This document shows positions 15,915 to 39,500 of a DNA stretch of 49,268 nucleotides, piece after piece. The notes beneath the pieces were generated by a model, which made no database searches, was not told the origin of the DNA, and saw only the letters and a program-made list of their open reading frames with translations. The stretch comes from Heptranchias perlo. Its lineage: Eukaryota. The stretch is taken from positions 7,378,001-7,427,268 of the forward strand of contig NC_090370.1 in the NCBI RefSeq assembly GCF_035084215.1. The letters run 5' to 3'. Position numbers and translations under genes: made by a program. Numbering within the stretch: position 1 is the first letter of the stretch; each line of letters opens with the position of its first letter.

Positions 15915-16306
15915 CATTTTCATTAAAATATCCCCCCACTCCCAACACACGCATGTCCACAATAATTCTCTCCCTTAATTAGTTAACCCAAAGCACATGG
16001 AGACAACAGCAGGTTCTTGTGTTATTTTGGGTAGATGTGCTCAGCATCTTCTGTCCTCTGTTTGGATTGAACTACAGGTGAATGGTTAGAAATGGTACAA
16101 AGATTTGCAAATTGCCTGATTTTTTTTATTCTTTTGTAAAATTCTTGATGAAAGCATAATTCTGGCTGAACCTTTAAAATTTGTTGTCCAACTAATTAGT
16201 TGGGATTTTATTATACAGGTTCAAACTAGTTAATGCTGTTTGATAGGGTTAACTATATAGTATACAAACTAGACTGCCACATAGCAGGCAAACAGCTATA
16301 TAACTG
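15915..16306. repeat. ~390-bp inverted repeat, right copy (partner 12492-12888)
   Basis: e.g. CTCTCCCTTAATTAGTTAACCCAAAGCACATGGAGACAACAGCA is the reverse complement of ~12787-12830. Confidence 0.9.
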
Positions 16307-17829: not shown

Positions 17830-17924
17830 TTAGTTGATGCGAATTGATTCACTCTCAGTCACCATTTTGCCATCCAACATTTTCTGAGTGGTTACCATAG
17901 TCTTCTTGATAGTTTGTGATGTTC
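17830..17924 (-). CDS. krt18: krt18-like exon 8 (tail, stop TAA)
   Basis: (G)[30 protein letters not shown]; tttgcag acceptor. Confidence 0.9.
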
Positions 17925-20890
17925 CTGCAAATAGATAAAAAATTGTGAGCAGGTATGTTCACACACAAGCTTAACATGCGATAGATTTCTGTCTTCACTG
18001 CCTGGGTGACAATCTGCCAGGGCAGATCGCACACCCTTTAAAGAACCCCCGATTCTCAGCCCATTCATTTTAATGGAATGTAAATCAGATGGGTTCCATA
18101 AAGGGCTTGCAGTCAGCCCTGGCAGATTACTACCCAGGCAGTGCAGACAGAAATCTATCCCATGGCCTTTACAGTAGAAATGTTTATAAAATTACACACA
18201 AGTGTCCTGAAAGCAATTAAAATGGTCTTACCTGAAGTTGATTCAACAAGTGCGCTGTAAAAAGAGAAAAAAAGTCAAACATAGTTCAATCTGCCCACAC
18301 CAATTATAGATATTTAACCAGGATGGGAGGGGGGGGGGGGGGGTCACCATTTTGCTATGGTTGTAACAATTTTTTTTCCTACCAATGCTAAATGTAACCC
18401 CAGCTTACTTGATGGCCTCTCCATCTAGCAGACGTTTGTATGTTGCTATTTCAACCTCAAGCTTCATCTTGATGTTCAGTAGATTTTCATAGTCTCTGGC
18501 CTGGGACTGCATTTCACTGCGGAGCTGAAGCAAATCTGCCTCCAACTTGGCAATCAGGGCATTTAGCTGCTGCAGCTCCATCTCATATCTCAGCTCTGTA
18601 TCTCGGAGAGTGTTTTCCAGTGAGTTTTTCTAGAATGAAAAAAAATGTATCCAATAATGCAGCTTGGTGAAATTGACTGTTACCATTCAATTAACTCTCA
18701 GTGAGTATTGGATTTTAAATTTTGGTTAAATGACACTTGTTCAGAATGTAGGTATGTCTTCAAGGTTATTAAAAGTGTATACCATGAGATTGAATTAAAT
18801 GTCTTTGGAGTCCTCACCATGCTTAGAAGACTCTCCAGCTCAACCTCCAGAGACTGTGTCTGGCGGCGTAGTTCAGTGACTTGTCCCTTTGAACCTTCCA
18901 GTGCATCAGTATTCTGTTGGACTTCAACTGTGTAGAAATCCATCTACAATTAGAAGAAATGCAATTAAGAGCCAGTACTTTTCACAAACGTTACCAGGTT
19001 CTAATATTTTGACAATGTAGTAATCTTGCGACCCTGTGTAGGTTTGTGTTTTAATGTGCACTTCATGTTATCAGTAAAGGCATTATGTGGAGTTGTTCAG
19101 GTTTTTAAATATAATTTCATTTACCTGGGTCTTGTACCAGTTCTCTGCATCATCTTTGTTTTTCTGTGCTATTTGCTCATATTGTTCCCTGATCTCTGAA
19201 ATGATCTTAGTCAAATCTGGACCTCGAGGAGAATCCACTTCAACCTGCACATTGGAGGTGGAGATCTGGGAACGGAGGGCTTTGATTTCCTGTGGAAATA
19301 AAACACACATTGCCATTCCATCTTTGTCAAACTGTCCATACCCTGCTTAAATATATAGAATACAAGCAAAGGATGAGAGAATCAAAAATGCAGCTTGTAA
19401 TACATAGAAATACACATCATACTTGAATAACCCATTTCCTGCACATTAGCCATTATTCAGATTATTTCCCAAAAGGAAATTACTTGTGTAACAATAATGG
19501 GTTTCCCAATAGTACATTGCAATCTTTCTCTAGAACTATGCCCTCTACAATATCCATTGACCCTGTTAGGTGTGGGTGAATTCCACCATGCTTTCCAGAA
19601 CCCACACCCTACTTTTCATATCATTATCATCCTGATATTTCCTTTCTAATAAGCGCCTGCTCTGTGGCACTTACATCATCATGGTTCTTTCTGATGTAGA
19701 TAAGCTCCTCTTTCAGAGACTCGATCTCGCTCTCCAGGTGCAGGCGTCCAATGTTGGTGTCGTCAATGACTTTGCGCAATCCGTTGATGTCAGTCTCCAC
19801 AGACTGCCTGATGGCCAGCTCAGACTCCCATCTACCGAGGAAACACAACCACGAGAGCCCATGTTAAAGGAGCTCAAACTTTGAGACTTGACCCCAAACA
19901 CCTTCGTGTGGCTATGGGTCACCTCATTGATACAATGGGGTTGAACACTCGCAACTTTAGGGACCATGAAAGAAGTGGAGGGGTTTGAAACCTTAAAGAA
20001 AAAAAACGCTTTGCATTGAATGCTGCGTTAGTAACTTTGTTCAATAATTGTATAACAGGATATGTGGATCGGTAAACTGATCGGTTATTGTATTTGTATG
20101 AGAAAGAAAGCACTCACTTCACCCTGAAGTCGTCAGCAGCCAGGCGAGCATTATCGATCTGAAGTATTAAACGAGCGTTATCTACGGTCATGTCATAGAC
20201 CTAGAAGATTAAAATATATATATTAAAACAATTTACATCCCATATGTTACCTACTCGGCCTTCCTGACAATCAGCCGATAAATTACAGTTGGTGATACTG
20301 GCGCAGGAAGGGTTAATCCCTGTCCAGTGGAACAGGTCTTTAAAATACAAAGGTTCCTCCGCTTGTGACCAGCTTGAGACGTCCTGCACCCCCTAGCAGG
20401 TGGCATGGTGGGCAAAGCATATGCCAGGTGCCAGGAGCCGCCACCCCCCGGGCCATCCCTAATGGGTTTGCTGAGCTGCTGGAACTTTTACCTGTTTGCG
20501 AAGATCATTCAGCGGCTTCTCGTAGGCACTCAAATCACGAGCACTGGGTCCCCTGGCGTCCAGGTGCTCCTTGATGTGCAGCTCCAATTTGGTGTTGGCG
20601 CTCTCCAGGCTGCGCACCTTCTCCAGGTAGTTGGCCAGGCGATCGTTCAGGTCCTGCATGGTCTCCTTCTCGTTGGCTACGCCCCCGATCCCGCTGCCCA
20701 CCATGAGTCCAACGCCGCCGCCGCCGCCGCCCATCCTGCTCGACCTGGAGAAGGAGCTGGACACCCGGCTCACAGCGACCCTGGGGCCAAAGCCACTGAA
20801 GCTGCTGGCGCTCGACTGCAGAGGCATGGACCTCCGGATGGAGTGGCTGTGCACAGGGCTACCGAAAGATGACAACGAAGAGTAATTCAT
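17830..20890 (-). CDS. krt18: Type I keratin, keratin 18-like; 8 exons join(complement 20492-20890,20118-20200,19675-19831,19125-19289,18818-18943,18409-18629,18232-18254,17830-17924); 422 aa
   Basis: Helix-initiation [40 protein letters not shown], linker VEVD, helix-termination [16 protein letters not shown]18-type tail [13 protein letters not shown]. All introns GT-AG; exon sizes 83/157/165/126/221 match the type I keratin pattern; total 1269 nt is in frame. Orthology to KRT18 rather than a paralogue is inferred. Confidence 0.9.
17975..18164. mobile_element. Fold-back MITE filling most of krt18-like intron 7
   Basis: Whole-length imperfect palindrome: GATAGATTTCTGTCTTCACTGCCTGGGT... / ...ACCCAGGCAGTGCAGACAGAAATCTATC, centred on CCATTCATTTTAATGG. 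Confidence 0.75.
18232..18254 (-). CDS. krt18: krt18-like exon 7 (23-bp micro-exon)
   Basis: Strong polypyrimidine tract ttttttctctttttacag and donor G|GTAAGA; converts phase 2 to phase 1 as needed for the last exon; encodes (N)ALVESTS(G). Confidence 0.85.
18409..18629 (-). CDS. krt18: krt18-like exon 6 (221 bp, coil 2 end)
   Basis: [19 protein letters not shown]...[24 protein letters not shown]; ttctag acceptor, gtaagc donor. Confidence 0.95.
18818..18943 (-). CDS. krt18: krt18-like exon 5 (126 bp)
   Basis: [42 protein letters not shown]; tgtag acceptor, gtgagg donor. Confidence 0.95.
19125..19289 (-). CDS. krt18: krt18-like exon 4 (165 bp)
   Basis: [26 protein letters not shown]...WYKTQ; ccacag acceptor, gtaaat donor. 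Confidence 0.95.
19675..19831 (-). CDS. krt18: krt18-like exon 3 (157 bp)
   Basis: [24 protein letters not shown]...YIRKNHDD; AG acceptor, GTAAGT donor. Confidence 0.95.
20118..20200 (-). CDS. krt18: krt18-like exon 2 (83 bp)
   Basis: [27 protein letters not shown]; ttctag acceptor, gtgagt donor. Confidence 0.95.
20492..20890 (-). CDS. krt18: krt18-like exon 1 (head + coil 1A)
   Basis: ORF 20459..20890 MNYSS...LRKQ; donor CAG|GTAAAA at 20491. Confidence 0.93.
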
Positions 20891-21233: not shown

Positions 21234-21509
21234 ATGTCTAACCGTAGCTTGTACCGTGTCAACTCCCGCTCCAAGCAATTCAGCAGCCAGTCTTATACCC
21301 CCGGCTCAGCAATGCAACGGGCCAGCTCCGTCCGCTCGGTCGGACTCCTGGGCACAGCGGCCGGGCAGAGACTGGGCGTCGTGCCCCTGGGCAAGGGGTC
21401 CCTCGAGCTGCCCCGATTCGAGGATTGCCAGGCTTTCCAGCAGCTTCGCGTTCAAGAGAAAGAACAGATCAAAGGATTAAATAACCAGTTCGCCACTTTT
21501 ATCGACAAG
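21234..21509 (+). CDS. krt8: krt8-like exon 1
   Basis: [10 protein letters not shown]...[19 protein letters not shown]; donor AAG|GTAAAA. Confidence 0.9.
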
Positions 21510-24500
21510 GTAAAAATAACGTTAGTTTAAAATTTATAAGTAACAAAAAATATTAAACTAAAATACAAAGTGTGGTTAAACTGTAACAAGATATTTAACT
21601 GTGAAATATGAAGTATTATCAAACAAAGTAAACTAACTGAAGTGTTATGTTAAACTATAAAATTATTTAAGTATATAATATGACATATTATCAGTCTGGA
21701 AGCTCCGGTTTAAACGGGTTATAGTTGATCCCTTCAAACATTTCAGATTGTTCTATATATAAAAGTAAACTGGAGACCTGCCGAATGAGCTCGCCTGGGG
21801 GCAAATTGCACTGAACCGTGACCAGCCCCACCAGTCTCCTGTCGGTGACTTTGAAGGTGCAGGTAGCGCACTTTGTAATAAAACATCAAATCCACAGATT
21901 GGAATGAAAAACAAAGTACTATTTCCGTCCTAGATTTGAGTCCGATTGTCTTATTTAATTCTCCTTTCCAAACTGCCCGTTACTTTGCTAAATGTGAAAG
22001 TTCACATTTAGAGATGAGTGTGAAATTAATATAATAAAAGGGGGAACCCCCCCTTAGATTAGATCCATTCCTTGTGAAATGTAATCAATTTTTTAGTTTG
22101 GCCATTTCACCTTTTACCGATTTGCATTTGGGTCTTAAGGGCGTTTTAAAGTCTCATTCCCTGAGTAACATTTGAAATCTGAAGCATATATTTTCTTTTT
22201 TATAGTGTTAAATGAGACTTTGTACTTTTTACTCTGAATTCACAAGCTTTCGGAGGCTACCTCCTTCCTCAGGTGAACGATGAGGAAGGAGGTAGCCTCC
22301 GAAAGCTTGTGAATTTAAAATAAAATTGCTGGACTATAACTTGGTGTTGTAAAATTGTTTACAATTGTCAACCCCAGTCCATCACTGGCATCTCCACATC
22401 ATGACTTTTTACTCTGAGTCGAGGTTTTTAACAATTTCTTGCTGCTTGATATTTAAATATGGGTTGTCTGTATCTTTTATCTGTAAATGAGCAGTTTGTG
22501 ACTAAGTGTCACTTGTTCTGCATTGGCACTGACCTAGACTATGGAGACCTGTAATTTTTTTACTCCACTCACCCTACCTGCAAACAGGTGCATGAAAAAT
22601 ATTAAAACATCTATATTTGATATGTTCTATTTTGGGGAATAAAGCTCCTGTGTACTGTAAATGTGTTTAAAACTCTGGTGACAGTGCAGTTCTAACCCCA
22701 AGTGCATTTGCTTGTGTTTCAGGTGCGGATACTGGAGCAACGGAACAAGCAATTGGAAATGCACTGGAAGCTGCTCCAGGAGAAAGGTGTGCGCACTTCC
22801 AATATTGACAACCTGTTCCAGGCTTATTCCAACAACCTCAAACAGCAGGTCGATGCCTTGGCCCAGGAGAAAATCCGCCTGAGTGCCGAGCTCGAAGGCA
22901 TGCAGATGCTGGTGGAAGACTACAAGTCAAAGTATGTGGAGAAGTGTTCAAAAGTGCCTCTGATCGAAGAATTAGAGAGAGGTTGAAATTCCTTTGTGCC
23001 ATTGTGGTCATGATGGCGAGTAGACAATGGCTAATGACTTAGTTGGAATAGAATATACATGAATTTTAGCCAGAGAGAAACAAAAGTTTGACTGCAGATT
23101 TTTCCCATGAAATCATGCGGTGCAATATAAGTAGTGAATGTTTTCCCCATGAAATTCCCCTGGCTGCTATTTTAGCAAAGATGCTAACTGGTTTTTAAAA
23201 TAAATTTAACACTTCCTTTAAAATAGGGAACAAGAGAATTACTTATAAATATGTTAACACACTCATTACTAATATCTTGTAGCATGTGGCTTGGGCACGG
23301 AATCTGCAGTGTAACTGTAGACTGACATAACCCATCTGAGTGCAAATTGATTTCAGGGTCGTCACAGTCACACGATCACTGGGAATTTCCTGAGGGGGGG
23401 TCCTTCCGATTGGTCACTGCAACGTCGGCAAAAACCGCCGTTCACTCGGTGTACCCAGGATTTCTGCCGCAGTTAAGGTGGGCAATCGGGAGAACACTCC
23501 TCCCCGCCGCCAGGAAATTTCCCGTGTAAGTTTCTAATGCTGGTAAAAACCCAACAGGAAAGTCAGCTCTCTATTAACAATAAGCAATTCACCAGCACTC
23601 TGATGCATGTGAGCAGAGCTCTGTGCCCATGTTTCTGTACACCAGCACAGAGCTCAGAGCAGACACAACTGGGGGTGAGGCCGTATACCATGGTGTTCCC
23701 ACTTGCAGGGGCTCTCTGTAGCTAAAACAAAAGCGACAGTTGAGTGAAGCACAAAGACATTTTGTAAAGTAATCTGAGACTCCCTTTTGCTGCAAAACTG
23801 GTTTTGGTAACCAGAAGTCTTGTGTGCCAAGCCAATATCAAATATCAACCATGTTCTTTTTGGCAAAAGAATCAGAGGGGAGAATTTTTTAAAAACTCAG
23901 CAAGTTGTTACAATCTGGAATATACTGTATGAAAGGGTGGTGGAAGCAGATTCAATAATAACTTTCAAAAGGTGAATTGGATATATATTTGAAAAGGAAA
24001 AATTTGCAGGGCTATGGGGAAAGAGCAGGGGAGTGGGACTAATTGGATAACCAATGAAGTATTTTTGAAGTGTAGTCACTGTTGTAGAGTTGGGAAACGT
24101 GGCAGGCAATTTACACTCTGCAAGGTTCCACAAACTCGTGATGTTGGTTGAGGGCTAAATGTTGGCCAGGAATCTCGACGCCTGTTGCTTAAATACACTG
24201 CCCAGCGCCGATTGAAACCGTACAGACCAAAAGGTCCCAGATTCAGTCCTCCGTCTGTGCTGAATTAGCTGATCTCTGCCAGGCTGGTGAGTGAGATACT
24301 ATGCTAAACCTCAGTGCAGCCAAGGTTCCAACCCTGATCTCCATCCAGTGAACACTTTGCTCATGTGGGGTTTAAAGACCAACATGGATTGGTTGGACCC
24401 AATGGCCTGTTGAAATTCTATGTGGGAGTGCCACTCTTATCTCTGGTGTCTTGCCCAAGTGGCTGCTGTTCTTATGTGAGTATTGGCTGACTGTTTGTTT

Positions 24501-27500
24501 GCCTGGGGAGGGACATCAGTGTTGTTTGATCCTGTCCCTGCCCTTTGTGCACAAATGCACTTTACAGTTGGAACCATTGTATGGTAAACAGGTGGAGGAA
24601 CTCTAGTTAATTATTCCTTCCTTAGCCCAGAAGTGCTGAGGTAAATTGCATTACCAGTTCAGCTGGGCAGATAGTAACCTGGGACCTTCCTGGTCTGTTT
24701 TGGCCCAATACCACACCACACAGTCTATAACCATCTTCTATTTTTTTTTTAAATTAAAATGTCACTTAACATTATTCATGCATCGACACTCTTCAACGGA
24801 AGACTGTGCAACCAGCAATTAAAATTAGTTTGAACAGTTCAGCTATATTTCAGTACACCTGTCACTCTGAACCTGTACACCCTGAAAACAGCTTTGAAAT
24901 GAAATCTTTCCCCTTCGATAGGACACTACCACCAAATGCTGGCAGAGCCATTTACTTCAGTATATCTGTAGCCAGTGGCAGACATTAAGTGCTCTAATTC
25001 TTCCTGGGCGTGCACACAGGTTAATGGATTTGCATTCAAATTTCTTTGCTATTTTAATATACTTTAAATGCACCTGCTTAAAACAAATGAGGGCTGATTT
25101 TAACTCCCTCTGCCCTGTGAGGGGAAAAAGGGTGGTAGCAGCCCAAAAATGCTGTCTGGTCACTTATTGCCCCATTTAGGCAGGCACTCTGGCTGCTGCC
25201 ATCTTGGGGAGGGCCCTCAGATGGGCAGCTGAATGCCAATTACCCCTTTAGAATTCCACCAGTAATACCAAACCAAGAGGAAATTTTCACTAACCCATTC
25301 AGTGCCACTACTTGTGACCAGAACAATTCCTACCTGCACATTAGTAGAGTTACATTAATTGCTTTTCCCGGAGCAGTTTGGCCTAGAAAAGAACAGGTTG
25401 CACACTGAAATGAATCAGTCGAATTACTGTTGAAGGCACAAAGTGAGCACCCAGACTCAACGACAAGCTTGCATTTATATAGTGACTTTAATGCAGCGAC
25501 ATGACTCGGTGATGGGGGGGGGGAATAAACTGAACACAAATGGGGGAGTTAGGTGACCAGATGCATGATCGAATCGATTTATGTTTTAAGAACGTGCTTC
25601 AAGACTGTTGGTGGAGAGAGAGAACACAAATTTTAAATAAATGAAAGTATGTGTTGGTGTTTGTTTAATTTTTTTTTGCTTGCCCCCCTCACTTGGATCA
25701 CTGCTGTAGCTCTTTATATTTCAGTCTGGTCTCTCTCTCATCTGTTGCTCATCCTGTCTTGCTGGGCTAGTCTTGCTCATTCCTGACTCTCTGATTGCTT
25801 AAGTTTAAGCTTCCTTTGGCTTCCCTGTTCCCTGGTTGTGGCTGATGTGTAGACCTGTGAGGAATAGAAAGGTAGGATAGAGTACCATCCCCCATTGGCA
25901 CAGAAAAATAACTTTCAGGTCCTCTTGTTCCTTCTCCCTCCCCTTCTGTCTGCCATTGTACTTGTGATTTTTGGGGGGGGGAGGGTGGGAATCCTATTAT
26001 TGTGTGCTTGCCTCCCTCTGCACACCTCTTCAAAAAATCCACCCTTGACTCCTCTGTCCTTGCAAACTACCGTCCCATCTCCAACCTCCCTTTCAAGTCC
26101 TTGACTGTGTTGTCGCCTCCCAAATCACTGCCCATCTTTCTCTCAACTCCATGTTTGAATCCCTCGAATCAGGTTTCCGTACCTGCCACAATACTGAAAC
26201 TGCCCTTATCAAAGTCACAAATGACATCCTATGTGACGATGGTGAACTATCCCTCCTCATCCTTTGACACGGTTGACCACACCATCCTTCTCCAACGACT
26301 CTCCTCTGTCGTCCAGCTGTGGGACTGCCCTCACCTGGTTCCATTCCTATCTGTCTAGTCTTAGCCAGAGAATCACCTGCAATGGCTTCTCTTCCTGCTC
26401 CCACACCATTACCTCTGGAGTCCCCCAAGGATCTATCCTTGGCTCTCTCCTATTTCTCATCCTTGTTTTCAAATCCCTCCATGGCCTCACCCCTCCCTAT
26501 CTCGAACGTCCTCCAGCCCTACAACCCTCCAAGATCTCTGCGCTCCTCCAATTCTTGCCTCTTGCGCATCCCTGATTTTAATCGCTCCACCATTGGCTGC
26601 CGTGCCTTCAGCTGCCTAGGCCCTAAGCTCTGGAATTCGCTCCTTAAAACCTACCTCTTTGACCAAGCTTTCGGTCATCTGTCCTAATACCTCCTTGTGT
26701 GGTTTGATGTGAAATTTTGTTTGATAATTGCTCCTGTGAAGCACCTTGGGACCTTTTACTATGTTAAAGGTGCTATATAAATATAAGTTGTTGTTGCTTA
26801 GCACAGATGACTTTCTATTGCACAGGCCCACTCAGAAGCTGACTTTTTTTGTGTAAAATTGTGGTACTCAGCAGCACATTATGCTCTGAGTAGGTGTTGC
26901 AATTTGCAGGATGTATCATGGGCGAGCTGCCTAACCACTTGCCCTAACCACAGTCCGGAGGGCAGTTCTGGTTCTTATTTAACTATCCTGACGTCACTGA
27001 AGGCACAGAGTGATTGTTTTATTGAAAGAGATGTGTTCTTATCGGCTTCACCCCATCTCTCCCGGGCCATGTTTAAACTACAGTAATTGGCAGACTGGAA
27101 TTCCTCTTTAAGGAAACAAATGCCCAAACTTTATCTCTACCCTCTGATAAAGGAGAGACTGCTCATCAATGTGATTTCCTGTGTGGCCACTCATTAACTG
27201 GTTGGGTAGCTGACATCAGCTTGGTGGCTTTTTTTAATTCATGAAAAGGTGGGTCTCCACAACTATAAGGTAGTTCTTTTCAATTTTTGTCCCTCCTGTC
27301 CCAAAGGCACTGACTTATGCAGAGATATGGCTCCACTAGCACTGGTATCTCATCAATGGCTATTCTTCATAGGCAAGCCTAGACTGAGTGTCAGCAATCT
27401 GTTTAACTATGGGATGGATGGATGGATAGGGGGGAGGGGGGGGGGGGGAGAAGGGACGTCATGGTCAAGCCTCATCTTGTACTCACCAGATGTCTATACA

Positions 27501-30500
27501 CATCTGCATTCTGGCAGGAATAGTGATCAGGAGTGGCAACTGCCCGCCACCTCTCCCTAACCTATGGTACTGAGGTCTATTGTATGATTCCTACCACTGT
27601 CCAGTCAACGTTGGCTAATTTGACGCAGACCAAGGGTTGAAGGCAGGACCTGCTCTGCATGGTGGAGTTTCAAAATGGGCTAGTTGAGTCATCGAGGTGC
27701 TCGAGCTCTTTACAATGACGTTTGCTATTTCTTATCTAGATAGGCCAAATACTTCCGCGTGAACAACCCCTCCCTAAACTTATCTTTTCCTTTTGCTCAA
27801 TAGTTTTAATGATTGATTGCTTTTATTGGTGGAAAGCAAGAACTTTTGATTCCTTGCATGATCTCAGGAACTCTCAAAGCACTTTACAACCAATGAATTA
27901 CTTTGAAGGGCAGTCACTGTTGTTTTGTAGGCAAATGCAGCAGCCAAGTTGCACACAGCAAGGTCTCTCAAAGACCAAGAGATGAATGGTCGGTTAATCT
28001 GTTTGGTGATTTTGGTTGAGTGATCAATGTTGGCCAGGACGCTAGGAGAATGCTCCTGCTCTTCTAAGTGCCATGAGATTTTTTTTTTTTACATTCACTT
28101 GAGCCGGGGCCTTGGTTTAACGTCTCATCCAAAAGACGGCAGCTCTGACAGTGCAGCACTCCCTCAGTACTGCACTGGGCGTGCCAGCCTAGATTTTGTG
28201 CTCAAGTTTCTAGAGTGGGATTTGAACACACTGCCTTCTGACTGAGGTGAGAATGCGAACAGAGCTACGGCTGACACACTATTGAGAAGTATGGTGGAAG
28301 GTTATAGCCCAAAGTACAGGACACCAGCAAGGTTGCACAGAGTGGGGGACAACTCGAAGTAGTGGATTGGATTTGAAAACCCTGCAGCTGGTGAGAGGGC
28401 ATTAACCATCTGTGCATTCATGGGTCATGTTTACACAGGGTTAATGATTACTGGGGTTTATTGGGAAATACTCTGCAGTTGATAACTTGGAAATTCTACC
28501 GACAGCTCTTGCCTGGAATCCTTTATTCTGACTTTTTTTGTTCTGCAGGTATGAAGATGAAATCAATAACCGTACAGAGAGGGAAAATGACTTTGTAATC
28601 ATCAAGAAGGTGGGTTCAAGCTTAAAAGTCAATCCAGTCAAGAAACTACTGGGCATCTCCGCAGGCTCAGTGGGTAATGTACTGTCCAGTATGGAGCTGA
28701 GCTATAAACACTAGGAGGCCCTAGGCCTGATCTTCGGTTTGTGCTGTTAGTTGATCTCTGCGGTCAGGTGCTGCAATGGTACTCAGCATCTCTGTGCTCG
28801 GGGGGAGGTGGAAATCTGATGAGGCTGCCTAGGATGAACACTATCCATTTTTTTTTTCCCCCCCTCCCTCGCCACAGTTGAAAACCTGCTGACGCTCAGG
28901 TGGGATTTCAGCAGGTGGGTGCAGAAAGTGGGGTGGGGTACCTTTACATTGGATCCCCTTCCATTTCTATGGCTATCAGACTTTCCTGGCATCACCTGTG
29001 CTGGTGTCTGATGTGCCTCCCCAAATATGGGCAGTGGTATTTAAATGAGGGGGTAATAATGGTGTGACAATAGATTTCCTGTCATTGCCCCCTCAGATAT
29101 GCTGGACATAACTTGTGCCTCAGCTGCTAGGTGATGGGAAATGTGAAAGAAGCTTAAGTGGACATAGCAGGCACTTTGAGAGTGAGCGAGAGAGAGAATT
29201 TGCATTTTGAGTCAAGGCCACTGTTTGGTGAACAATGGAGTTCTTGCCTGGCCCTTTAAGCTGCTGCAGGCATTGGAGATCCTGCTGCCATTTGCCATAT
29301 TCACCTCCTGCCCCCACTGCCCCGGGGACAAGCTCCCAATTGCTGTCAGCAATACTGCTATGCCAAAACCATTTAAATTAAGCTGACCCCAGAACATTCA
29401 CTGGGGTCAGCACCCAGCTCAGAGCGGGCAGACATGCTGCCATGCCACACTTGTGCCGATGAAGAAAATCTAAGCTTAGACGTAAAGAATGGTCGCTTTG
29501 GCAAGATACTAGAAGTGGCTGGTGATCTGGAACCCAATGAGGCTGAGTTCCTTCAGTGGAAGAGAGGAGAAAGAAAAACAATGGAGACCATTAAAAATTC
29601 CTCCCTTGTGTACCTTGTGCTTATGTCTGTCTGTCTGTCTTTGTCTTGTAGGATGTTGACGAAAGCTATCTCAACAAGGTGGACCTGGAGGCTAAACTTG
29701 AGAGCCTTACTGATGAAATCAATTTCCTGAAGGAAATATTTGATGAGGTAATGAACAAATTGTGTTGTAAGAAACAGAGACTTTCACAAAGAACTCTCTC
29801 TATTTTTAAAACTTCAATTTTGTGATGTGGGCATTGCTGGCAAGGCCGGCATTTGTTGTCAATCCCCGGTTGCCCCTCGAGGATGGCGATACAACTCAGT
29901 GGCTTGCCAGGCCACTTCAGGGGGCAGTTAAGAGTCAACTATATGGCATGGGACTGGAGTCACATTGGCCCAGACCGGGTAAGGACGACAGGTTTCCTTC
30001 CCTAAAGGATGTTAGTGAACCAGTTGGGTTTTTACGTCATGTTTACACAGCTTTTACTGAAGCCAGCTTTTTACTTCCAGGATTTTAAAACTGCCATAGT
30101 GGGATTTGAACTCTCATTTACTGGATTATTAGTCCAGGCAGCTGGATTACTAGTCCAGTAACATAATCGATAAGCTACAGTTCCCATATATTTACTGTTT
30201 TACCAATACTGTGGGTTTCTGAACCACTTTACAAAACATTATGCTCTAAAAATAATTAATTGTGTGTAACATTTCAATATGATAAAATGCTATTTAAATG
30301 GAAGCATTTTTTTTACATACTGGGGAGAACAATTTACTTTCGGGGAGGGGGTGCAGGCTAATGCTTGTGCTTAAGATGAGGCATATTAACACTGAGGAGA
30401 CTAACATTTTCTCCTTTTCGACGTCTGGGGCTGGGATTTTCCTCCGGGTGGAGTGGGGCTCATTTGCAGTGCGTGGTGGGCTCCAGACAGAATTGCTGCT

Positions 30501-33500
30501 GCCAAAAGGGAGCTTGCCAGTGTGAGGACAGCACCAGAAGGTGGCATCAAGGCTGAGGCTTTCAACGGGTAAATACAGGGCCCAACTTGGAGGGAGTGGA
30601 AGCTGGTATTGGGCCCTCTCCCTTCACTAGGGGAACACAGGGCCTTTACTGCCATTTCGAGAGGCTACCACTATCTTCCTCATGGTGGCCCAGGGGATTG
30701 GCGGTAAATGGGGCATACAGGAGGGAAATCCTTTAGGGACCTGGTTCCTGTCTTTTTTTTCCCCCCCGCCCAGGTTTGGATGGTATCGTGGAGTCCTGGC
30801 CCCATGCAAGCACACTGAGAAAATGCAAGTACTGCACAGTAGGTTAGTGAGCATTCGAAGGAGACAGATAGGCCAGGGTTTTGGGTGGGACCCTTGCCCT
30901 GAAGGCTTCCACCACTTGCAGTTTTTCTTTTGATCTCGGGCACTCCCAGGTTAGGTTTGTCGCCATTATCTGAACCCATTGACCAGTGGGTTCCCTCCAA
31001 GTATCCACTATCTTTATCTAATACACTGGCATTGGCCCTCTTAAATAAGGGTGCCTTAATACAGTTTACTGTGCACTCCTGCTATGGTTCCCATTAGCCC
31101 CATTCCCTCCTCAACCAAATGTTTTCACAATAACATAGAAAAAGTAATCCAAAATACAAACTGAGTGTTTTAAATCTAAAATAAATCCTGGCACGTGTGC
31201 AAGGGAATATCTGAAATTCAGATGAGTCTGGGACCAACAGAGTGCAATTCAATAGAACGAATACTGAATGAGTTTGTATGAAATCCCATGCTACTTTAAC
31301 AGAGGCATTGCCTCATTTAAAGTAAACATGTGGCAGTAGGAAGAGACACCAAGGTATGATTTGGTGATGAGGGCCACACAGTAAGGGCCGAGGTGTCACC
31401 TCCAGTGAGTCAATTTTCCATCATAGCTAGGATGTCAATGCAACTATCCACAATAAGGCTGTGGATGTCAAAGGCCTTGTTTGCAAGCAAACGGACATTC
31501 TGGAGGGAAATGTGGAGAGGGCCCATGATTGTTGATCCACTGGTAGTCCCAAGGGGGCAGCAGTGGGTGGGATGAGTGGGATGGAAAGGAGGTTGGCAAG
31601 ATTAGCCCCCCAGTGGACGTACAGGGTGGGAAAGTCAGTGAGAGGAGGTTGGTCCTTGTAAGGTGGCAGTGACAATTGCCTTGATGGGTCCTTTTGGAGA
31701 ATGCTGAGAAGCACAAGAGGGTGGACTTAACTAAGCAGAATTCAAGCCTGGAGAGTAGGAAGGCAAAGGAGTAGTGATAGGTTGGGGTCGAGATTAGGGG
31801 AGGGGAGATGAAAGGTGGCATAACTGGGTAATAGGAAGGCAAGGAGACAGGAGAGAAGAGCCCAAGAGGGGGGGGATTAAAAAAAGATAGAAGTAATGGG
31901 CTGGAGCCTGAAGCGGCAGTCAAAATATGCAAGTAAATGGACACAAAGGGAATTCACGTTATATAGGCATGGCAGAGATTAGGAGAGACATTTCCTCATT
32001 GTAAGGAGACAATATGACAGTCCAAAGATAAAGTCTGAGGGCCCATGGTGGGATGAAGTTGACTTGTAGACCGGGTGAAGCCAGCTGGGAGCATCGACGA
32101 ACCAATGTCCAGGCTCGGAGCCTGTTCTGGACTCAATCGCTCGCCACAAGCTATTCAAGGGGCAGTGTATCAGTGGGCGAACTACTGGAGTGGAAACTGA
32201 GGGCTGAGGAGGAGTGGAGAGTCGACCATGAGCCAGCAGAGGTTGATCCAGGGGAAGGACATTAATGCTGGGGAATGGAAGACTTCCCATTTTGGTCATC
32301 AAGCCCTCCCAGGTCAGGCACAGCACATTTAGATGCAGGGTAAAGCTCTCTACTCTGCCCCAACAGTGTGTTTCAGACCCAGCTATAGAAGAACACCCTG
32401 TACTATAGCACTTTCCACTTCTGACCTTGTGGCCTCTGTGCTCATTAGGGCAAAATTAATGCCTGTTTTATCAAAAGAATTGGCACCATTCAATTTACAA
32501 TACAAATCCATCAACAGAATGTTAGGAACAGGACCGGGAGTAGGCCATTCATCCCCTCAAGCCTGTTCTGCCATTCAATTAGATCATGGCTGATCTGAGA
32601 AATCATTAACTGCTGGTGTTATTTCAACCCATACTACAAGGAAATGTAGGGTACTATACATTAGAGCAGAGAACTTGCAGGCTCACATTCAAATCAAGTT
32701 CTTTTAGTGAGCATTACTAATCCTTTTGTTTAAGTCTAGCTTAAGTGCCAAGACCATATTGATGGCCATGCCTGCTAGGAACTGGTTTGAGACGGTCCAA
32801 ACTCATCAGATGCTGTGTTCAACCTGCTACTGCAGATTACAGTAATCTCTGGACCCCTCACTTATATTGCACTTTTGTAAGATACCCAATGGGTATGAAA
32901 CATTTCCATGTGAACATGTGCTAGAGTAGAGTTTCTCCCAGCATCAAATACCTCCTGTAAACACTAACACTGGTGCACTAGCACCAGCAAAAGTGACCTT
33001 TATAATATTTTCCAGTTAGTCCTGTTGACACAACTCTCACATGGTGTACAATACAAATGTGATCTAGTTTTTTTTTGTTTCTATTTAAAGAGTTGTAACT
33101 GGTAAGCAGGACGCAGGCATTGCTAAACTGAAGTACATCTGTTTATTTTCCCACCCAGGAAATCTATGATCTGCAGGCCCAGATGAAGAACACTGCTATC
33201 ACTCTGGAAGTTGACACTAGCCGCAACCTGGACCTTTCCAGCATCATCAGTGATGTCCGGGCTCAATATGAAGGAATGGTGAACAAAATTCGCCAAGATA
33301 CCGTGATTTCATATGAAACCAAGGTAAGGCTTGGTGTATTCTGTCAAAGGGTAAATAACTCTTGGCGAGCAGACACCAGCGCTCACCAGGTTTGAACGGC
33401 CTCCTTCTATGAGGTCACTTCTAGAATGCTGTGACTAAGAAAAAAGGCAAAAACCTAATCTTAGCATCTTGCATAAACATAAATATTGACGTCCAAAGAG

Positions 33501-36500
33501 AAATATCTTGAGCAATGAGCTAAAACCAGACTAATAATATTAGACGGTAGTCATGATGTGGAGATGCCGGTGATGGACTGGGGTTGACAATTGTAAACAA
33601 TTTTACAACACCAAGTTATAGTCCAGCAATTTTATTTTAAATTCACAAGCTTTCGGAGGCTACCTCCTTCCTCATCGTTCACCTGAGGAAGGAGGTAGCC
33701 TCCGAAAGCTTGTGAATTCAGAGTAAAAAGTACAAAGTCTCATTTAACACTATAAAAAAGAAAATATATGCTTCAGATTTCAAATGTTACTCAGGGAATG
33801 AGACTTTAAAACGCCCTTAAGACCCAAATGCAAATCGGTAAAAGGTGAAATGGCCAAACTAAAAAATTGATTACATTTCACAAGGAATGGATCTAATCTA
33901 AGGGGGGGTTCCCCCTTTTATTATATTAATTTCACACTCATCCGTTGTCGAACGGACACCGCGCAACAATCGCCAAACAGGAGGGTTCCCTCCCAGTCGG
34001 GGAACACTTCAGCAGTCAAGGACATTCAGCCACCGACCTTCGGGTAAGCGTACTCCAAGGCGGCCTTCGAGACACACGACAACGCAAAATCGTCGAGCAG
34101 AAATTGATAGCCAAGTTCCGCACCCATGAGGACGGCCTCAACCGGGATCTTGGGTTCATGTCACGCTACACGTTACCCCACCAGCGAACAAATGTTATCT
34201 GTTTTTAATATAACGGGTCAGTTGCTGTCTTTTCTATGTTTCTAACTCTCTATCTCTTTTTTTTTGTTTGTTGTTTTTTTTGGTGATTTGTATATTCTGA
34301 GACCTGGCAGGTAACACCTGTCTGTCTGCACACTGATTGCCTTGGCAACGGGCAGTTGAAAAAACTGTCTGTTATCACCAGCATTGTTCTGTGAATTATA
34401 AATGCGACTTCATTTCGAGGACTTCATTTCCGCATCGTTCACCTGAGGAAGGAGGTAGCCTCCGAAAGCTTGTGAATTTAAAATAAAATTGCTGGAATAT
34501 AACTTGGTGTTGTAAAATTGTTTACAATAATATTAGAAAGTAATGTATTAACATGCAGTTCATCTGTCTGCTATTTTAAGATAAAACTGGTTAATAGTGG
34601 GCAACGGCATTTCATATGAACCAATTAATATGGGCATTCCTAATATTGCACAGCATGCTTTCAATCCCAGGAGTGTTAAGTTGTGGATAAAATGGTGGCC
34701 ATGGCCACCATATTACCAAGGTACTTCACTGCCATTGCTGGCAGGATTCGTGACTTTGATCGCAGTGCTGTAAAGTCACTGTTGGTGGGAGAGGTCACCA
34801 GTTTTTTTCTAGTTGTGGGTGGAATGAAAATGCAGCCTGCCCATAAGGGTCACTGATGTGGTTTCTGGATTGCTGACCTGTATGAACCTTCCTAATGAAA
34901 AAAGGCCTGGAGGCCAGAAAATTAAGTTGTGAATTAATTGTGTCTTTCAAACAAATGTGGGTGCACAAGATTACATAGTCCTTGGGACTGGGAGCACTAG
35001 GCGATTACCAGACCACTTCTCAATGAAGCATTTCTGTAATTTAAAGTAAGCATTAGTCAAAGGCAAGACTTGGATCTGAAGGTTCTGCTAGTTTCTAATG
35101 GGGATTGATCATGTTGGCAGAACAGACAACTGAATCCAGCTTAAGTCACATGCCGATGAAGGTGTGCTGTACCATATTACTGCACTCATGTTGACTTTTG
35201 TGCTAAAATTATAGACTGGAGGAATTTGACCTCCCGGGAGACCAATTTATATCCCGAGCCATTGACATTCGAAGGTATTATTTTGCCTGCACAAGTCATT
35301 TCAAGTGCTTATCTGTTTCACCATAAGGCACCACATAAATGGAACTATTGTTCCTGAAATTCTGTGGGATTTTCCAATTTTTCACCGACGCTCCAACCTT
35401 CAGGGAAGTAGCAGAGCCCTGATATAACCCAGGTTAAGCTGGGTCTGTATGATTTCCCTGGGGTTTACAGCAGGAGACTGGGGAATTTCAGGATTGTTGG
35501 GGGTAATTTTGACTTTGGGTGATTAGTGGAAAACGGGTGATATCGGATCAGCCGCCCTTTACACACCTTACACGATTCTCAAATCCCTTGCACTATCGCC
35601 CAAAGTCAAAATACCCCCATTGCCTTTTATTTTCTGGAAACAGTGAAATGTGGTGTAGTACTGATGTTCTACTGCCAGGTGAATCATGTCTTGGTTGATA
35701 AATCCATTTCCATTTTAAAATCTTCGAAAATGCTGTGAAGCAGTTTGTCTCAAATGTAGAACTTCACTCATTGAGAAAATACTGAATTTATTTTTATTGT
35801 ATATTGCAAGATGATAACCCCACTGTACTGTACCCTCACATGAGAATGGCATCATTTTACAAATTGCCATTCAGCCACTCCACATTCGTTTTCCTCTTTC
35901 TCCTCATTGTATTAAAACCGTGACTCATCACACCATCTCCTACTCTAATTCCTTCTTTCCCACAACCAGAACTTCTTCTTATCTCCCTCAGTTTTATCCT
36001 CCTACAGTCCAAAACCAAAGCTTGGCCTCAAAGAACCCTACTTCCTGATTTTACCTAATCTTCTCTTTTTAAAAAAAAATCAACCTTGATGGCGTCTTGG
36101 ACTGTGGCCGTTGGCCATTCCCTCGGGCTTCTCAATGAAGAGAAAACAATAACCAAGGAAAGCACTACGACAGAGAAAACAAAACTGCAATTTGGAAATA
36201 CAGAAAACATGAGTCCATCACTATCTTTAAAGAGTGAATTATGTTAATGTTTGGGGTGAATTGTTAAAACCATTAGTACAATGGCCCCCCCCTTTATTGT
36301 AGGGATGGTCTGGGTTCCTTTAAAGAATGATTATGAATTTTATGTTATTAATGGTTCTCTATTTTAGTTTGACACTATGAAGAAAAGTTCTGGAAAACAT
36401 ACAGATGAGCTCCGTATCATTAAGACTGAGATATCGGACATGGGCAGACATGTCGGAAGACTAAATTCTGAGATCCAGAGTTTGAAACAACAAGTAAGAT

Positions 36501-39500
36501 CACTTTATGCAGGATTGAAATTCTTAAGTCATTGCTATTTTTGTTGTAAATGCCACTCTGCACCCACTCTCTCTAATTTTCACCCCTCTTCTCCTGGAGG
36601 TGTTGACTCTTTCTGGTTGCACAGCTTCCAACTGCCCTCTGGTACCTCACTCCAGTGGCCAAGTTTCATGTGTGGCCTTACAACAAGTGTTAATGGACTA
36701 TTTGAGATAACTGGCTCGATTGAAGTCAATGGAGAGGATAACTGGGTGGGGTGTATAATGGGGGGCCGATCTGCTACCACCTGTTTTCCACGACCGCTGA
36801 ACATTAAAATCAGCCCCACGGTCTTTGCAGCATGCATTGCTGAACAACAGATCAGGAATGGGAACCCTGGCTGATTATCCCTCCTGATCGAGGGGTGCTG
36901 AGGCCGTGGTGTAGGGCCCCTCTTGCTGCCCTGGCTCAGCTCAACTGACTCAGCACAGACCACGGACTGAACCTGGAACCTTCCTGGTCTGTTTGGATTA
37001 GGTGCACAACAGCAGGTGCACTTGTAAATGGAGCAAATTGACTGGGGAAGGAGGAGCCAAGTTAAGACATTGCTACCATTAAACAGAGGAGATTGTGACA
37101 CTTTTTGTGTTTAACGTTAGTGACTATGGCAGTTTTAACTCTTATCGAAACAATTTGTGGATTTAAAATGAACAAAGATAGTTTTATTTTTAATAATGTG
37201 AAGAAATGTATTTAAAAGGAAAGAGGGGAGATTACAGGGTAAGCTAACCTGGGCTTGTGCCCTTACTACTGACCAACTAGGAGGGCATTGGCAGAGGCCA
37301 GTGAGTTCTTCACCTCTTTTTATAGCTCAAGGAATGGGAGTGGAGGATGGAGGTGGAAAATGAGTAAAGGGAAGGTGGAGGGAGGAGTTATTGATGGTGT
37401 TCAACATCTCAAAAGAATTTCTGCTACTTTATGAATGTGTCAATTAGAATTTGTTGCAAATGTTTGTTTTTGTTAAAATGGCGCACGTACATTAGTGAAT
37501 TGAAGGGCTAGCTTTCAGCAATGCTAATTATCAGTTCGGAACATTGAAACAGGAGGCCATTCAGCCCCTCGAGCCTGTGCCGCCATTCAATTAGATCATG
37601 GCTGATCTGTATCTTGCCTCCATTTACCCGTCTTGGTTCCATATCCCTTAATACCTGACAAAAATCTATCAATCTCAGTTCTGAAATTTTCAATTGACCC
37701 CCAGCCTCAACAGCTTTTTGCAGGGGAGAGTTCCAGATTTCCACTCCCCTTTGTGTGAAGAAGTGCTTCCTGACATCACCCTTGAACGGCCTGGCTCTAA
37801 TTTTAAGCTTATGCCCCCTTGCTCTGGACTCTCCTGACCAAAGGAAATAACTTCTCTCTATCTACCTGATCAAATCCAAAGTTGGGACATTGGCTCACTT
37901 TGCACTGTCCATATGCTACAGAAAGATCAGATGGAGGCAGCAATCGCAGACGCGGAGGGACGCGGGGAGCTGGCCCTTACTGAAGCTAAGAGCCGCATAG
38001 CTGAGCTACAGGCAGCCATGGAGAAGGGTAACCAGGAAATCATCCGTCAGGTGCGAGAGTACCAGGACTTAATGAACACAAAGCTTGCCCTGGACATCGA
38101 AATTGCCACTTACAAAAAACTGCTCGAAGGAGAGGAAAGCAGGTTAGTACATTCTGGGTACCTCTTGAAATAAAAACAGAAAATGCTGCAGAAGCTCAGC
38201 AAGTCGGGCAGCATCTGTGAAGAAAGAAACAGTTAACATCTCAGGTTGAGGACCTTTTGTCAGAACATCTGGGTACCTCTGGAACTGGCTTAGTTCAATA
38301 AATTAGGCTCTTTCTGGAAGGCTGGGTTCAGGGTTGCACAAAGTATCCCAGTTGAGGGTGTCCTTGAGAGTGTTGCACAACATGGCCATGGATGTAACTC
38401 TATTGAAACCTGCCAGAAGATGGCAGGGACCTGGTTGCATTGGGTCTTTGCTGTTTCTGGGACTTTCTGTGCAGCCTTGTTGGATTCAGAACCTCTGTCC
38501 AACCCTTACAGGGCAAATGACTCCAAGGGGGTGGCCACTGGGTGGGGGTGGAGGGAGCAGAGCTAGGGTTAGGGACACTCAATACTAAAAGTTCCTGCTT
38601 CCCTGGGTCAGTTGGGACCCACTTGCCTGGGCAACCTTACCCCCACCCCCCACCCAACATGGTCAGCAGATGCTCGATCTTCAGGCTTCATGGAGCAAGT
38701 TGGAGATATGTTCATAGTGGCACAGGTGCCTGCCAGCCCCAAGTAAATTAGATGTCCTCCCACTGAGCCCACAAACTCTGGCAGGGTCAGTGCTGGTGCA
38801 CTTAATCTCTGCTGATTATTCCGGGCCTGTGTTCCACAACTCGTGTGTGTTAATGAGGGCCAGTGTATGTTTAACTGCTGCAGCATGATCAATCTTCAAA
38901 AAATATAAACAGAGCCCCTTTTTTGGATCAAAGTGGTGGCGTTAGAACACTGAGCTCCCATTCAGATCACCCAAGTTTGTAGGGCATTGGATCATCCAGT
39001 GAGTTCTAAGTGATATAAAAAGAAAGAACTTGCATTTATATAGTGCCTTTTATGACCTCAGGATGTCCCAAAGTGCTTTACAATCAATGAAGTACTTTTA
39101 AAGTGTAGTCACTGTTGTAATGTACGAAACGTGGAGCTGCTCCCACTCCGCCATCGTAACTTCACCGTGAGTATGTCAGAAACCCTCTTTGTGTGTTTAC
39201 ACTGCATTTCCAGTGAAATTACGGCAGTGACAGGGAGCAGTTCCTAAGAGATTAAGGGCATTCAAAGTGCAGTTGACTGCTAGACCAGGATAGAGTAATA
39301 GAGATTATTACTCTTAGAGCTTCATTGTACCTTTTATTCATTCTTAACTGTTCTCGTGTGTATGTTCTTTCCAATAACAGTTACTCTTGTCTCTGATTTC
39401 AGATTGTCAGCGCCAGTGAATGTGTCCTTTCACCAATCAATCAAAAGTAAGAAAACTGCTCTGAATGTTTTCAATTACAAAATCTAATCATTTTGTGCAG

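Follow-up and report, generated by a model that had tools for sequence, protein, structure and literature searches.

A near-perfect inverted repeat around exons 2 to 5 of a Heptranchias perlo keratin gene as a probable by-product of Penelope-like retrotransposition

The window analysed here is a stretch of 49,268 nucleotides from Heptranchias perlo (contig NC_090370.1, positions 7,378,001 to 7,427,268 of the forward strand). It contains a type II keratin gene, similar to keratin-8, in which exons 2 to 5 lie between the arms of a long inverted repeat. Exon 1 is 100% identical to P0181, which NCBI labels as keratin type II cytoskeletal 8-like of Heptranchias perlo, and the seven-exon model matches this protein at 384/384 residues over exons 1–7. 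Exons 2–5 add up to 531 nt (209+61+96+165) and all have AG/GT ends, and intron 1 is 1213 nt long. Such an exon layout is probably general for type II keratins.

The arms of the repeat, A in intron 1 (22013–22406) and B in intron 5 (33549–33942), are 394 nt long and complementary at 393/394 positions, the sole mismatch being T at 22386 against G at 33569. They form the longest of the 74 inverted pairs in the window; the runner-up has 189 nt at 84%. An initial annotation of this DNA had described a near-perfect 394-nt intronic inverted repeat around exons 2–5, with arm A separated by 316 nt from the acceptor of exon 2, and arm B by 225 nt from the donor of exon 5. The repeat, both gaps, the exon sizes with their sum and the phases are all borne out on our exon model, but that account of the arms overlooked their transposon parts, the target-site duplications and the larger insertion at B. 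We propose that the inverted repeat is probably (at roughly 0.8) a by-product of the retrotransposition of a Penelope-like element (PLE), produced by template switches in one integration and with no demonstrated function. Such an origin accounts for the repeat without calling on a function.

Arm A consists of 225 nt of host intron 1 and a small PLE insertion. This mini-insertion spans 22238–22403 and is bounded by a perfect 14-bp duplication, the right copy of which lies almost wholly beyond the arm and has no counterpart at B. Because this second duplication copy exists only at A, A is the native site and B the copy; judged from the sequence, the two arms are a source and a copy and not a symmetric pair.

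Arm B is the 5' part of a 981-nt PLE insertion (33545–34525) with a perfect 12-bp duplication on either side. In a chance control, which took random pairs of positions at the same spacings and excluded positions at the two real sites, 0/2960 pairs reached 12 bp and 0/2968 reached 11 bp. The locus was also compared with one DNA and three RNA contig sets from a single sample (4 of 8 listed runs) over 22407–38200. The DNA contigs (run X1) cross the left outer junction of B (32777–33571), its right outer junction (34505–35527) and the right flank of A, with no differences. That they are unbroken speaks against a misassembly and gives a weak argument against this animal having an empty allele. The parts of both loci and the coding exons are listed in Table 1.

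Table 1. Coordinates of the keratin exons and of the parts of loci A and B in the window
Feature	Position	Strand	Basis or remark
Exon 1, coding part	21234..21509	+	100% identity to P0181
Host intron-1 DNA, 225 nt including left target-site duplication of A; later copied into B	22013..22237	+	two copies only in window
Target-site duplication of mini-insertion A, left copy, 14 bp	22224..22237	+	sequence; chance control
Inverted pLTR piece with whole minimal hammerhead motif on minus strand, 43 nt	22238..22280	-	
Forward pLTR piece with tail, 123 nt, ends at element ATG; hairpins with inverted piece	22281..22403	+	sequence; P0028
Target-site duplication of A, right copy	22404..22417	+	at A only
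Exon 2, 209 nt	22723..22931	+	sequence, Pfam, RNA contigs
Exon 3, 61 nt	28549..28609	+	sequence, RNA contigs
Exon 4, 96 nt	29652..29747	+	sequence, RNA contigs
Exon 5, 165 nt	33159..33323	+	sequence, Pfam, RNA contigs
Target-site duplication of B, left copy, 12 bp	33533..33544	+	sequence, contigs, chance control
Four bases past the arm; minus strand continues ORF start M-T-T (M-T-F at A)	33545..33548	-	
Arm B, locus A copied in inverse orientation: tailed pLTR, hairpin with hammerhead, 225 nt of host intron 1	33549..33942	-	
Whole minimal hammerhead motif, in sense orientation to the keratin pre-mRNA	33677..33717	+	motif scan
Inverted ORF snippet, 12 nt (R-Q-R-M); first 4 bases common to arm B end (microhomology)	33939..33950	-	
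3' end of Penelope-like ORF, C-terminal GIY-YIG-type endonuclease part, 5'-truncated	33951..34205	+	
3' untranslated region plus tail-less pLTR, with the second whole hammerhead at 34437-34477	34206..34528	+	
Target-site duplication of B, right copy; 3-nt overlap with pLTR end	34526..34537	+	
Exon 6, 126 nt	36368..36493	+	sequence, RNA contigs

Several features place these insertions among the endonuclease-containing (EN+) PLEs. The forward open reading frame (ORF) piece at B consists of the last 84 codons and is 95–98% identical to shark proteins and 95% identical to P0002. The combination of a reverse transcriptase with a C-terminal GIY-YIG endonuclease is found in P0002, which has an RVT_1 domain (E 5e-9) and a V-Y-L-I...Y-I-G (GIY-YIG-type) motif upstream, while the window holds the last 84 residues only. 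The Atlas pointer to GIY-YIG amounts to 15% of one cluster. The pseudo-long terminal repeat (pLTR) carries a minimal type I hammerhead; a motif scan for the core CUGAGGA, helix II, GAAA and a 6-bp helix I, in what we take to be the core layout, found three whole copies in the window. The pLTR with its tail overlaps the ORF start, the arm end translating as the ORF-start residues of P0028. Inverted parts are present at both A and B and the tail, of 30–40 nt in such elements, is at one end only; at B, along the pLTR, the inverted end exceeds the forward end by 38 nt (counted to the ATG) to 45 nt. Both duplications lie at AT-rich sites and are short (14 bp at A and 12 bp at B), as read from the letters alone. 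Of the six Rfam matches in the window, those in the hairpin are to microRNA families only, far below the gathering score, and were rejected as hairpin look-alikes.

Summed contig depth over 33474–34527 is about 6e5–9e5, against 9–16 on unique contigs. The depth over B shows the family to be very common and young. Other family copies seen in the contigs stop at 33552/33553 and carry inverted-to-forward joints. A search of representative sequences returned 241 relatives and nothing new, and the pLTR end, used as a search pattern, had 0 matches in metagenome contigs. The Penelope endonuclease piece is also found in annotated shark proteins (P0001, P0009, P0016, P0021, P0022, P0025, P0026 and P0027), including XRCC5, PPP1R12A-like, FAM210B, septin 5a and FAM204A, mostly in alternative isoform models. 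These pieces are either exonised elements or annotation artefacts.

Canonical EN+ PLEs of the Penelope/Poseidon type, as described in the accounts used (PMC8557442, PMC11167929, PMC3846280), share the GIY-YIG-type ORF end, the minimal-hammerhead pLTR, the inverted 5' copy, the one-ended tail and the AT-rich target with a short duplication. A tail at one end only is reported for PLE insertions in two of these accounts (PMC8557442, PMC3846280), and for an anole PLE it has been attributed to reverse transcription that starts at two sites, with cutting and extension of both strands of the target (PMC11167929). Unlike in these elements as described, the inverted 5' part at the keratin locus copies an older insertion 11 kb away together with its host flank, and there is a second, 12-nt inversion at the inner junction.

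Both ends of arm B carry family sequence that is absent from A. At the outer end the minus strand reads as P0028 around the ORF start, and P0029 likewise begins M-T-T; A differs from this end by W for R and by F for the last T. This is modest evidence that the first 21–25 bases of B were copied from an intact element and not from present-day A. At the inner end, 33939–33950 read backwards gives R-Q-R-M, the residues just before the N-G-H-R that opens the forward piece. R-Q-R-M precedes N-G/E-H-R in 14 of the 20 matches having the motif, out of 27 matches. Four of the 12 snippet bases are common to the end of the host copy. The snippet and its common bases therefore suggest that the copying of A ended at a microhomology and was resumed on the element, immediately 5' of the forward piece, for another 8 bases.

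Read from the sequence, a small PLE fragment first entered intron 1 with a 14-bp duplication, giving locus A. A later PLE insertion then entered intron 5 with a 12-bp duplication, in the usual form of a forward 5'-truncated copy and an inverted 5' part. The strand of the inverted part may have begun on Penelope RNA just inside the ORF start and, through pLTR homology, moved to the nearest pLTR copy, locus A, 11 kb off, as nascent pre-mRNA or DNA. Copying would have run across A into 225 nt of host intron and returned to Penelope RNA at the 4-nt microhomology just upstream of the other cDNA stop, where 8 nt would have been copied and joined. The source lies only 11 kb off despite the very large family, which points to physical closeness, whichever template was used. 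The later steps of PLE integration are described as not validated (PMC11167929). LINE-1 elements offer a parallel, where twin priming is a second priming beside the first cDNA end and where two-template and locally templated insertions are known (PMC11702581, PMC13174262). The accounts of LINE-1 resemble our locus in opposite-orientation segments within one duplication, microhomology joins and extra sequence templated near the site; here, by contrast, the enzyme class is different, there is no poly(A) tail, priming is at the pLTR/ORF start and the switch is apparently guided by pLTR homology.

A number of points weigh against this account. The ORF piece has no Pfam match and Rfam reported no hammerhead in the window. 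The inner junction, 33942/33943, is absent from the contig pieces listed, and the empty site was not seen, all runs being from one sample. The first switch rests on one CpG mismatch and 3–4 extra bases compared with a single protein record, with no family DNA consensus; if the mismatch is a later mutation, its position in the outer 21 nt has a chance of 5–8%. The other copies seen end 7–8 nt short of the end of B. RNA and DNA templates predict one orientation, because pLTR homology forces the same strand, and the copied hairpin is unedited, with no A>G marks, so the two templates are indistinguishable.

The same final structure would have arisen if B had at first been an ordinary PLE with an inverted pLTR and had later broken at the inner junction, repair through one-sided invasion of A then importing the hairpin and the host DNA. 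Such a repair would account for the family-like outer end of B and its A-like interior. The arm, however, ends at a 4-nt microhomology and the inverted snippet lies directly upstream of the forward piece, which is the geometry described for twin priming (PMC11702581). This geometry is not decisive, as repair could also land on an older junction. We regard later repair as possible but unlikely, and clearly prefer capture at integration. Of similarly low likelihood is the use of a single template, in which the PLE enzyme primed on the keratin pre-mRNA at the pLTR end of A, the four bases were untemplated and a CpG mutation occurred later in A. In its favour, other copies stop close to the ATG (33552/33553) and the only mismatch falls in a CpG; pLTRs are also reported to suffice in cis to mobilise host sequence (PMC3846280). 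Set against this, the extra bases continue the ORF as Thr (P0028, P0029), and both family-like features are found at one end.

The initial annotation proposed that the arms could give a circular RNA (circRNA) of exons 2–5 or an mRNA joining exon 1 to exon 6. The geometry is indeed known to favour back-splicing, but the origin of the repeat as a retrotransposon by-product was missed. In frame 0 a circle of exons 2–5 has 0 stops, as claimed, and 5 Met codons; the endless frame is no independent evidence, because an in-frame block between two phase-0 junctions always gives one. The join of exon 1 to exon 6 stays in frame and would lose residues 93–269 of 447, at about positions 20–197 of 313 in the Pfam Filament domain. 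The skip had been said to remove the coil 1B/L12 region; on what we take to be the usual rod map it would also take away some of coil 1A and the beginning of coil 2. For the suggested dominant-negative effect on filaments nothing was found in support.

The keratin gene is still spliced normally. The three RNA runs were recognised as RNA by their spliced junctions; the library type is unrecorded and may be poly(A)-selected. The joints of exons 3–4, 4–5, 5–6 and 6–7 are present in 3/3 RNA runs and none is present in the DNA run, while the exon 2–3 joint is present in 2/3 RNA runs with loose ends in the third. The contig-mapped stretch does not include exon 1 and arm A, so that an exon 1–6 skip would be visible only as a loose end. 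In two runs the loose ends in front of exon 2 carry exon 1, and the listed loose ends at the end of exon 5 read exon 6. No row for a back-splice, an exon 1–6 join or an empty site is among the 15/1052 joints and 24/2690 loose ends listed, and contigs drop rare forms. No A>G places are among the rows listed for 3/3 RNA runs (at 3% and 95% likeness), where heavily edited reads are dropped and repeat contigs swamp the pLTR part. The contig of the exon 6–7 joint is 1.3–1.6x deeper than that of exons 5–6 in 3/3 RNA runs; this was set aside, as contig depth is no guide to the relative amounts of different parts of a gene and a 3' bias would produce the same pattern. The exon 7 acceptor at 37922 has almost no pyrimidine tract, yet is used in 3/3 RNA runs.

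Reverse-complementary sequence is found in both flanking introns, as in known circRNA loci. Folding gives the A:B duplex -730 kcal/mol compared with about -140 for each arm alone, and the host part by itself -393. At equilibrium the long A:B duplex would be favoured, but local hairpins (-70 kcal/mol per arm) and the nearer pLTR partner of B (769 nt away, -140) are predicted to form first. The geometry known to favour back-splicing and the very stable predicted duplex make a minor circle or some editing plausible, and we expect at most these or, rarely, an inversion of the 11-kb block. Such an inversion, through recombination between the arms, would turn exons 2–5 around (22407–33548) and leave an in-frame exon 1–6 allele; the assembly has the normal orientation of 22407–33548, and short contigs cannot separate the two orientations.

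A stronger claim is that the arms pair in the pre-mRNA and yield the circle, or the exon 1–6 mRNA, at several percent of the linear form and with a biological effect. The closeness of the arms to the outer splice sites, the strength of the duplex and the good expression of the gene in three RNA runs are in its favour, as is the association of mammalian circRNA loci with young transposon pairs in flanking introns (PMC8516420). On the other side, every canonical junction is bridged, the loose ends listed at exons 2 and 5 read the neighbouring linear exons, the local folds compete, and the 1213-nt intron 1 could be gone before arm B is made 11 kb later. The same account argues that such circles are mostly low-level by-products, and describes the mammalian loci as mostly without conserved function (PMC8516420). 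Compared with those loci, the young complementary pair near the outer splice sites is alike; the pair here differs in being a local duplication with 57% unique host DNA, the upstream intron is short and the circle is only predicted. We consider the stronger claim improbable. Whether some exon 2–5 circle is detectable is close to a toss-up, and that it is abundant or of consequence is improbable.

The backward copying of A has given arm B a whole hammerhead in sense orientation to the pre-mRNA, at a distance of 760 nt from the second motif. Acting as a dimer, the two could in principle cleave the keratin pre-mRNA and reduce or change its output. Both sense motifs are whole with a palindromic helix III, and minimal PLE hammerheads lacking helix III as well as dimer action of type I motifs are described (PMC6155905). 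However, the active dimer is predicted at -23.5 kcal/mol compared with -70 and -140 for sequestering folds, and the folding argues for sequestered motifs. The anole PLE hammerhead is reported to have cleaved only with the protein of the element (PMC11167929), the exon 5–6 junction is present in 3/3 RNA runs, and cutting is thus very unlikely. Hammerhead retrozymes are under-represented in Xenopus introns according to a preprint (10.64898/2026.07.22.740005).

An assembly artefact, or terminal inverted repeats (TIRs) of a DNA transposon carrying exons 2–5, is extremely improbable: the near-perfect identity and the trouble that PLE structures reportedly give assemblies (PMC8557442) speak in favour, but the arms differ at one site, and read-built contigs, which probably come from the individual that was assembled, run unchanged across the right flank of A and the two outer junctions of B. 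A miniature inverted-repeat transposable element (MITE) or other TIR element was rejected, as the flanks of 22013 and 33942 share no direct repeat, and each locus has a duplication of its own while none encloses the 11.9-kb unit.

Other features of the window lie apart from this repeat. The minus strand carries a type I keratin gene whose start, at 20890, is head to head with the type II start (21234, plus strand) at a distance of about 340 nt, and whose tail exon is near 17830–17930. The arrangement suggests a bidirectional promoter common to both filament partners. An older inverted duplication (12493–12850 and 15947–16305) has arms of about 360 nt that are 90% identical, 3.1 kb apart and the only two copies in the window; inspection by eye did not recognise a target-site duplication or PLE sequence there. 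About 70 nt to its left is a near-perfect 54-nt palindrome with 24-bp arms (12373–12426). In the keratin gene, intronic contigs of 3/3 RNA runs differ from the DNA contig listed at 30547–30552, where they have a 25-nt insertion and a G>A change that it lacks. This variant is probably the other allele of the same animal, possibly with allelic imbalance.

Each ingredient of the proposed origin has already been published, namely PLE inverted ends and tails, host capture between pLTRs, locally templated retro-insertion and transposon pairs at circRNA loci. The nearest precedents are the Penelope captures of Adineta vaga (spacers of Pen1_Av and a nonribosomal peptide synthetase (NRPS) gene between pLTRs; PMC3846280), which are alike in unspliced host sequence, pLTRs and a target-site duplication. 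In the account used, the spacers are not traced to a source and the captured gene is flanked by direct pLTRs, whereas the host DNA at the keratin locus comes from the same gene, is inverted and apparently entered through a resident pLTR. Within the open-licence literature, excluding subscription journals and supplements, no title was found on capture by a PLE of an intron of the same gene through a resident pLTR, or on a PLE-driven back-splice.

As a single locus with no demonstrated effect on the keratin, this repeat alters no current view. The insertion is young and all its junctions are legible, and it records two primings, a one-ended tail, a switch to a local copy and a return at microhomology. 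The locus also lends itself to testing if a near-perfect pair of 394-nt arms, around a short first intron, suffices for a circle from a highly expressed gene. It is conceivable, if unlikely, that PLEs entering active genes regularly switch through pLTR homology onto the nascent pre-mRNA of the same gene, if this holds an older pLTR, and that the keratin locus gives a detectable exon 2–5 circle. If so, such events would leave perfect inverted copies of host introns around blocks of exons, and in sharks, where young copies are very numerous, they would be a standing source of new circRNAs and of inversion-prone blocks.

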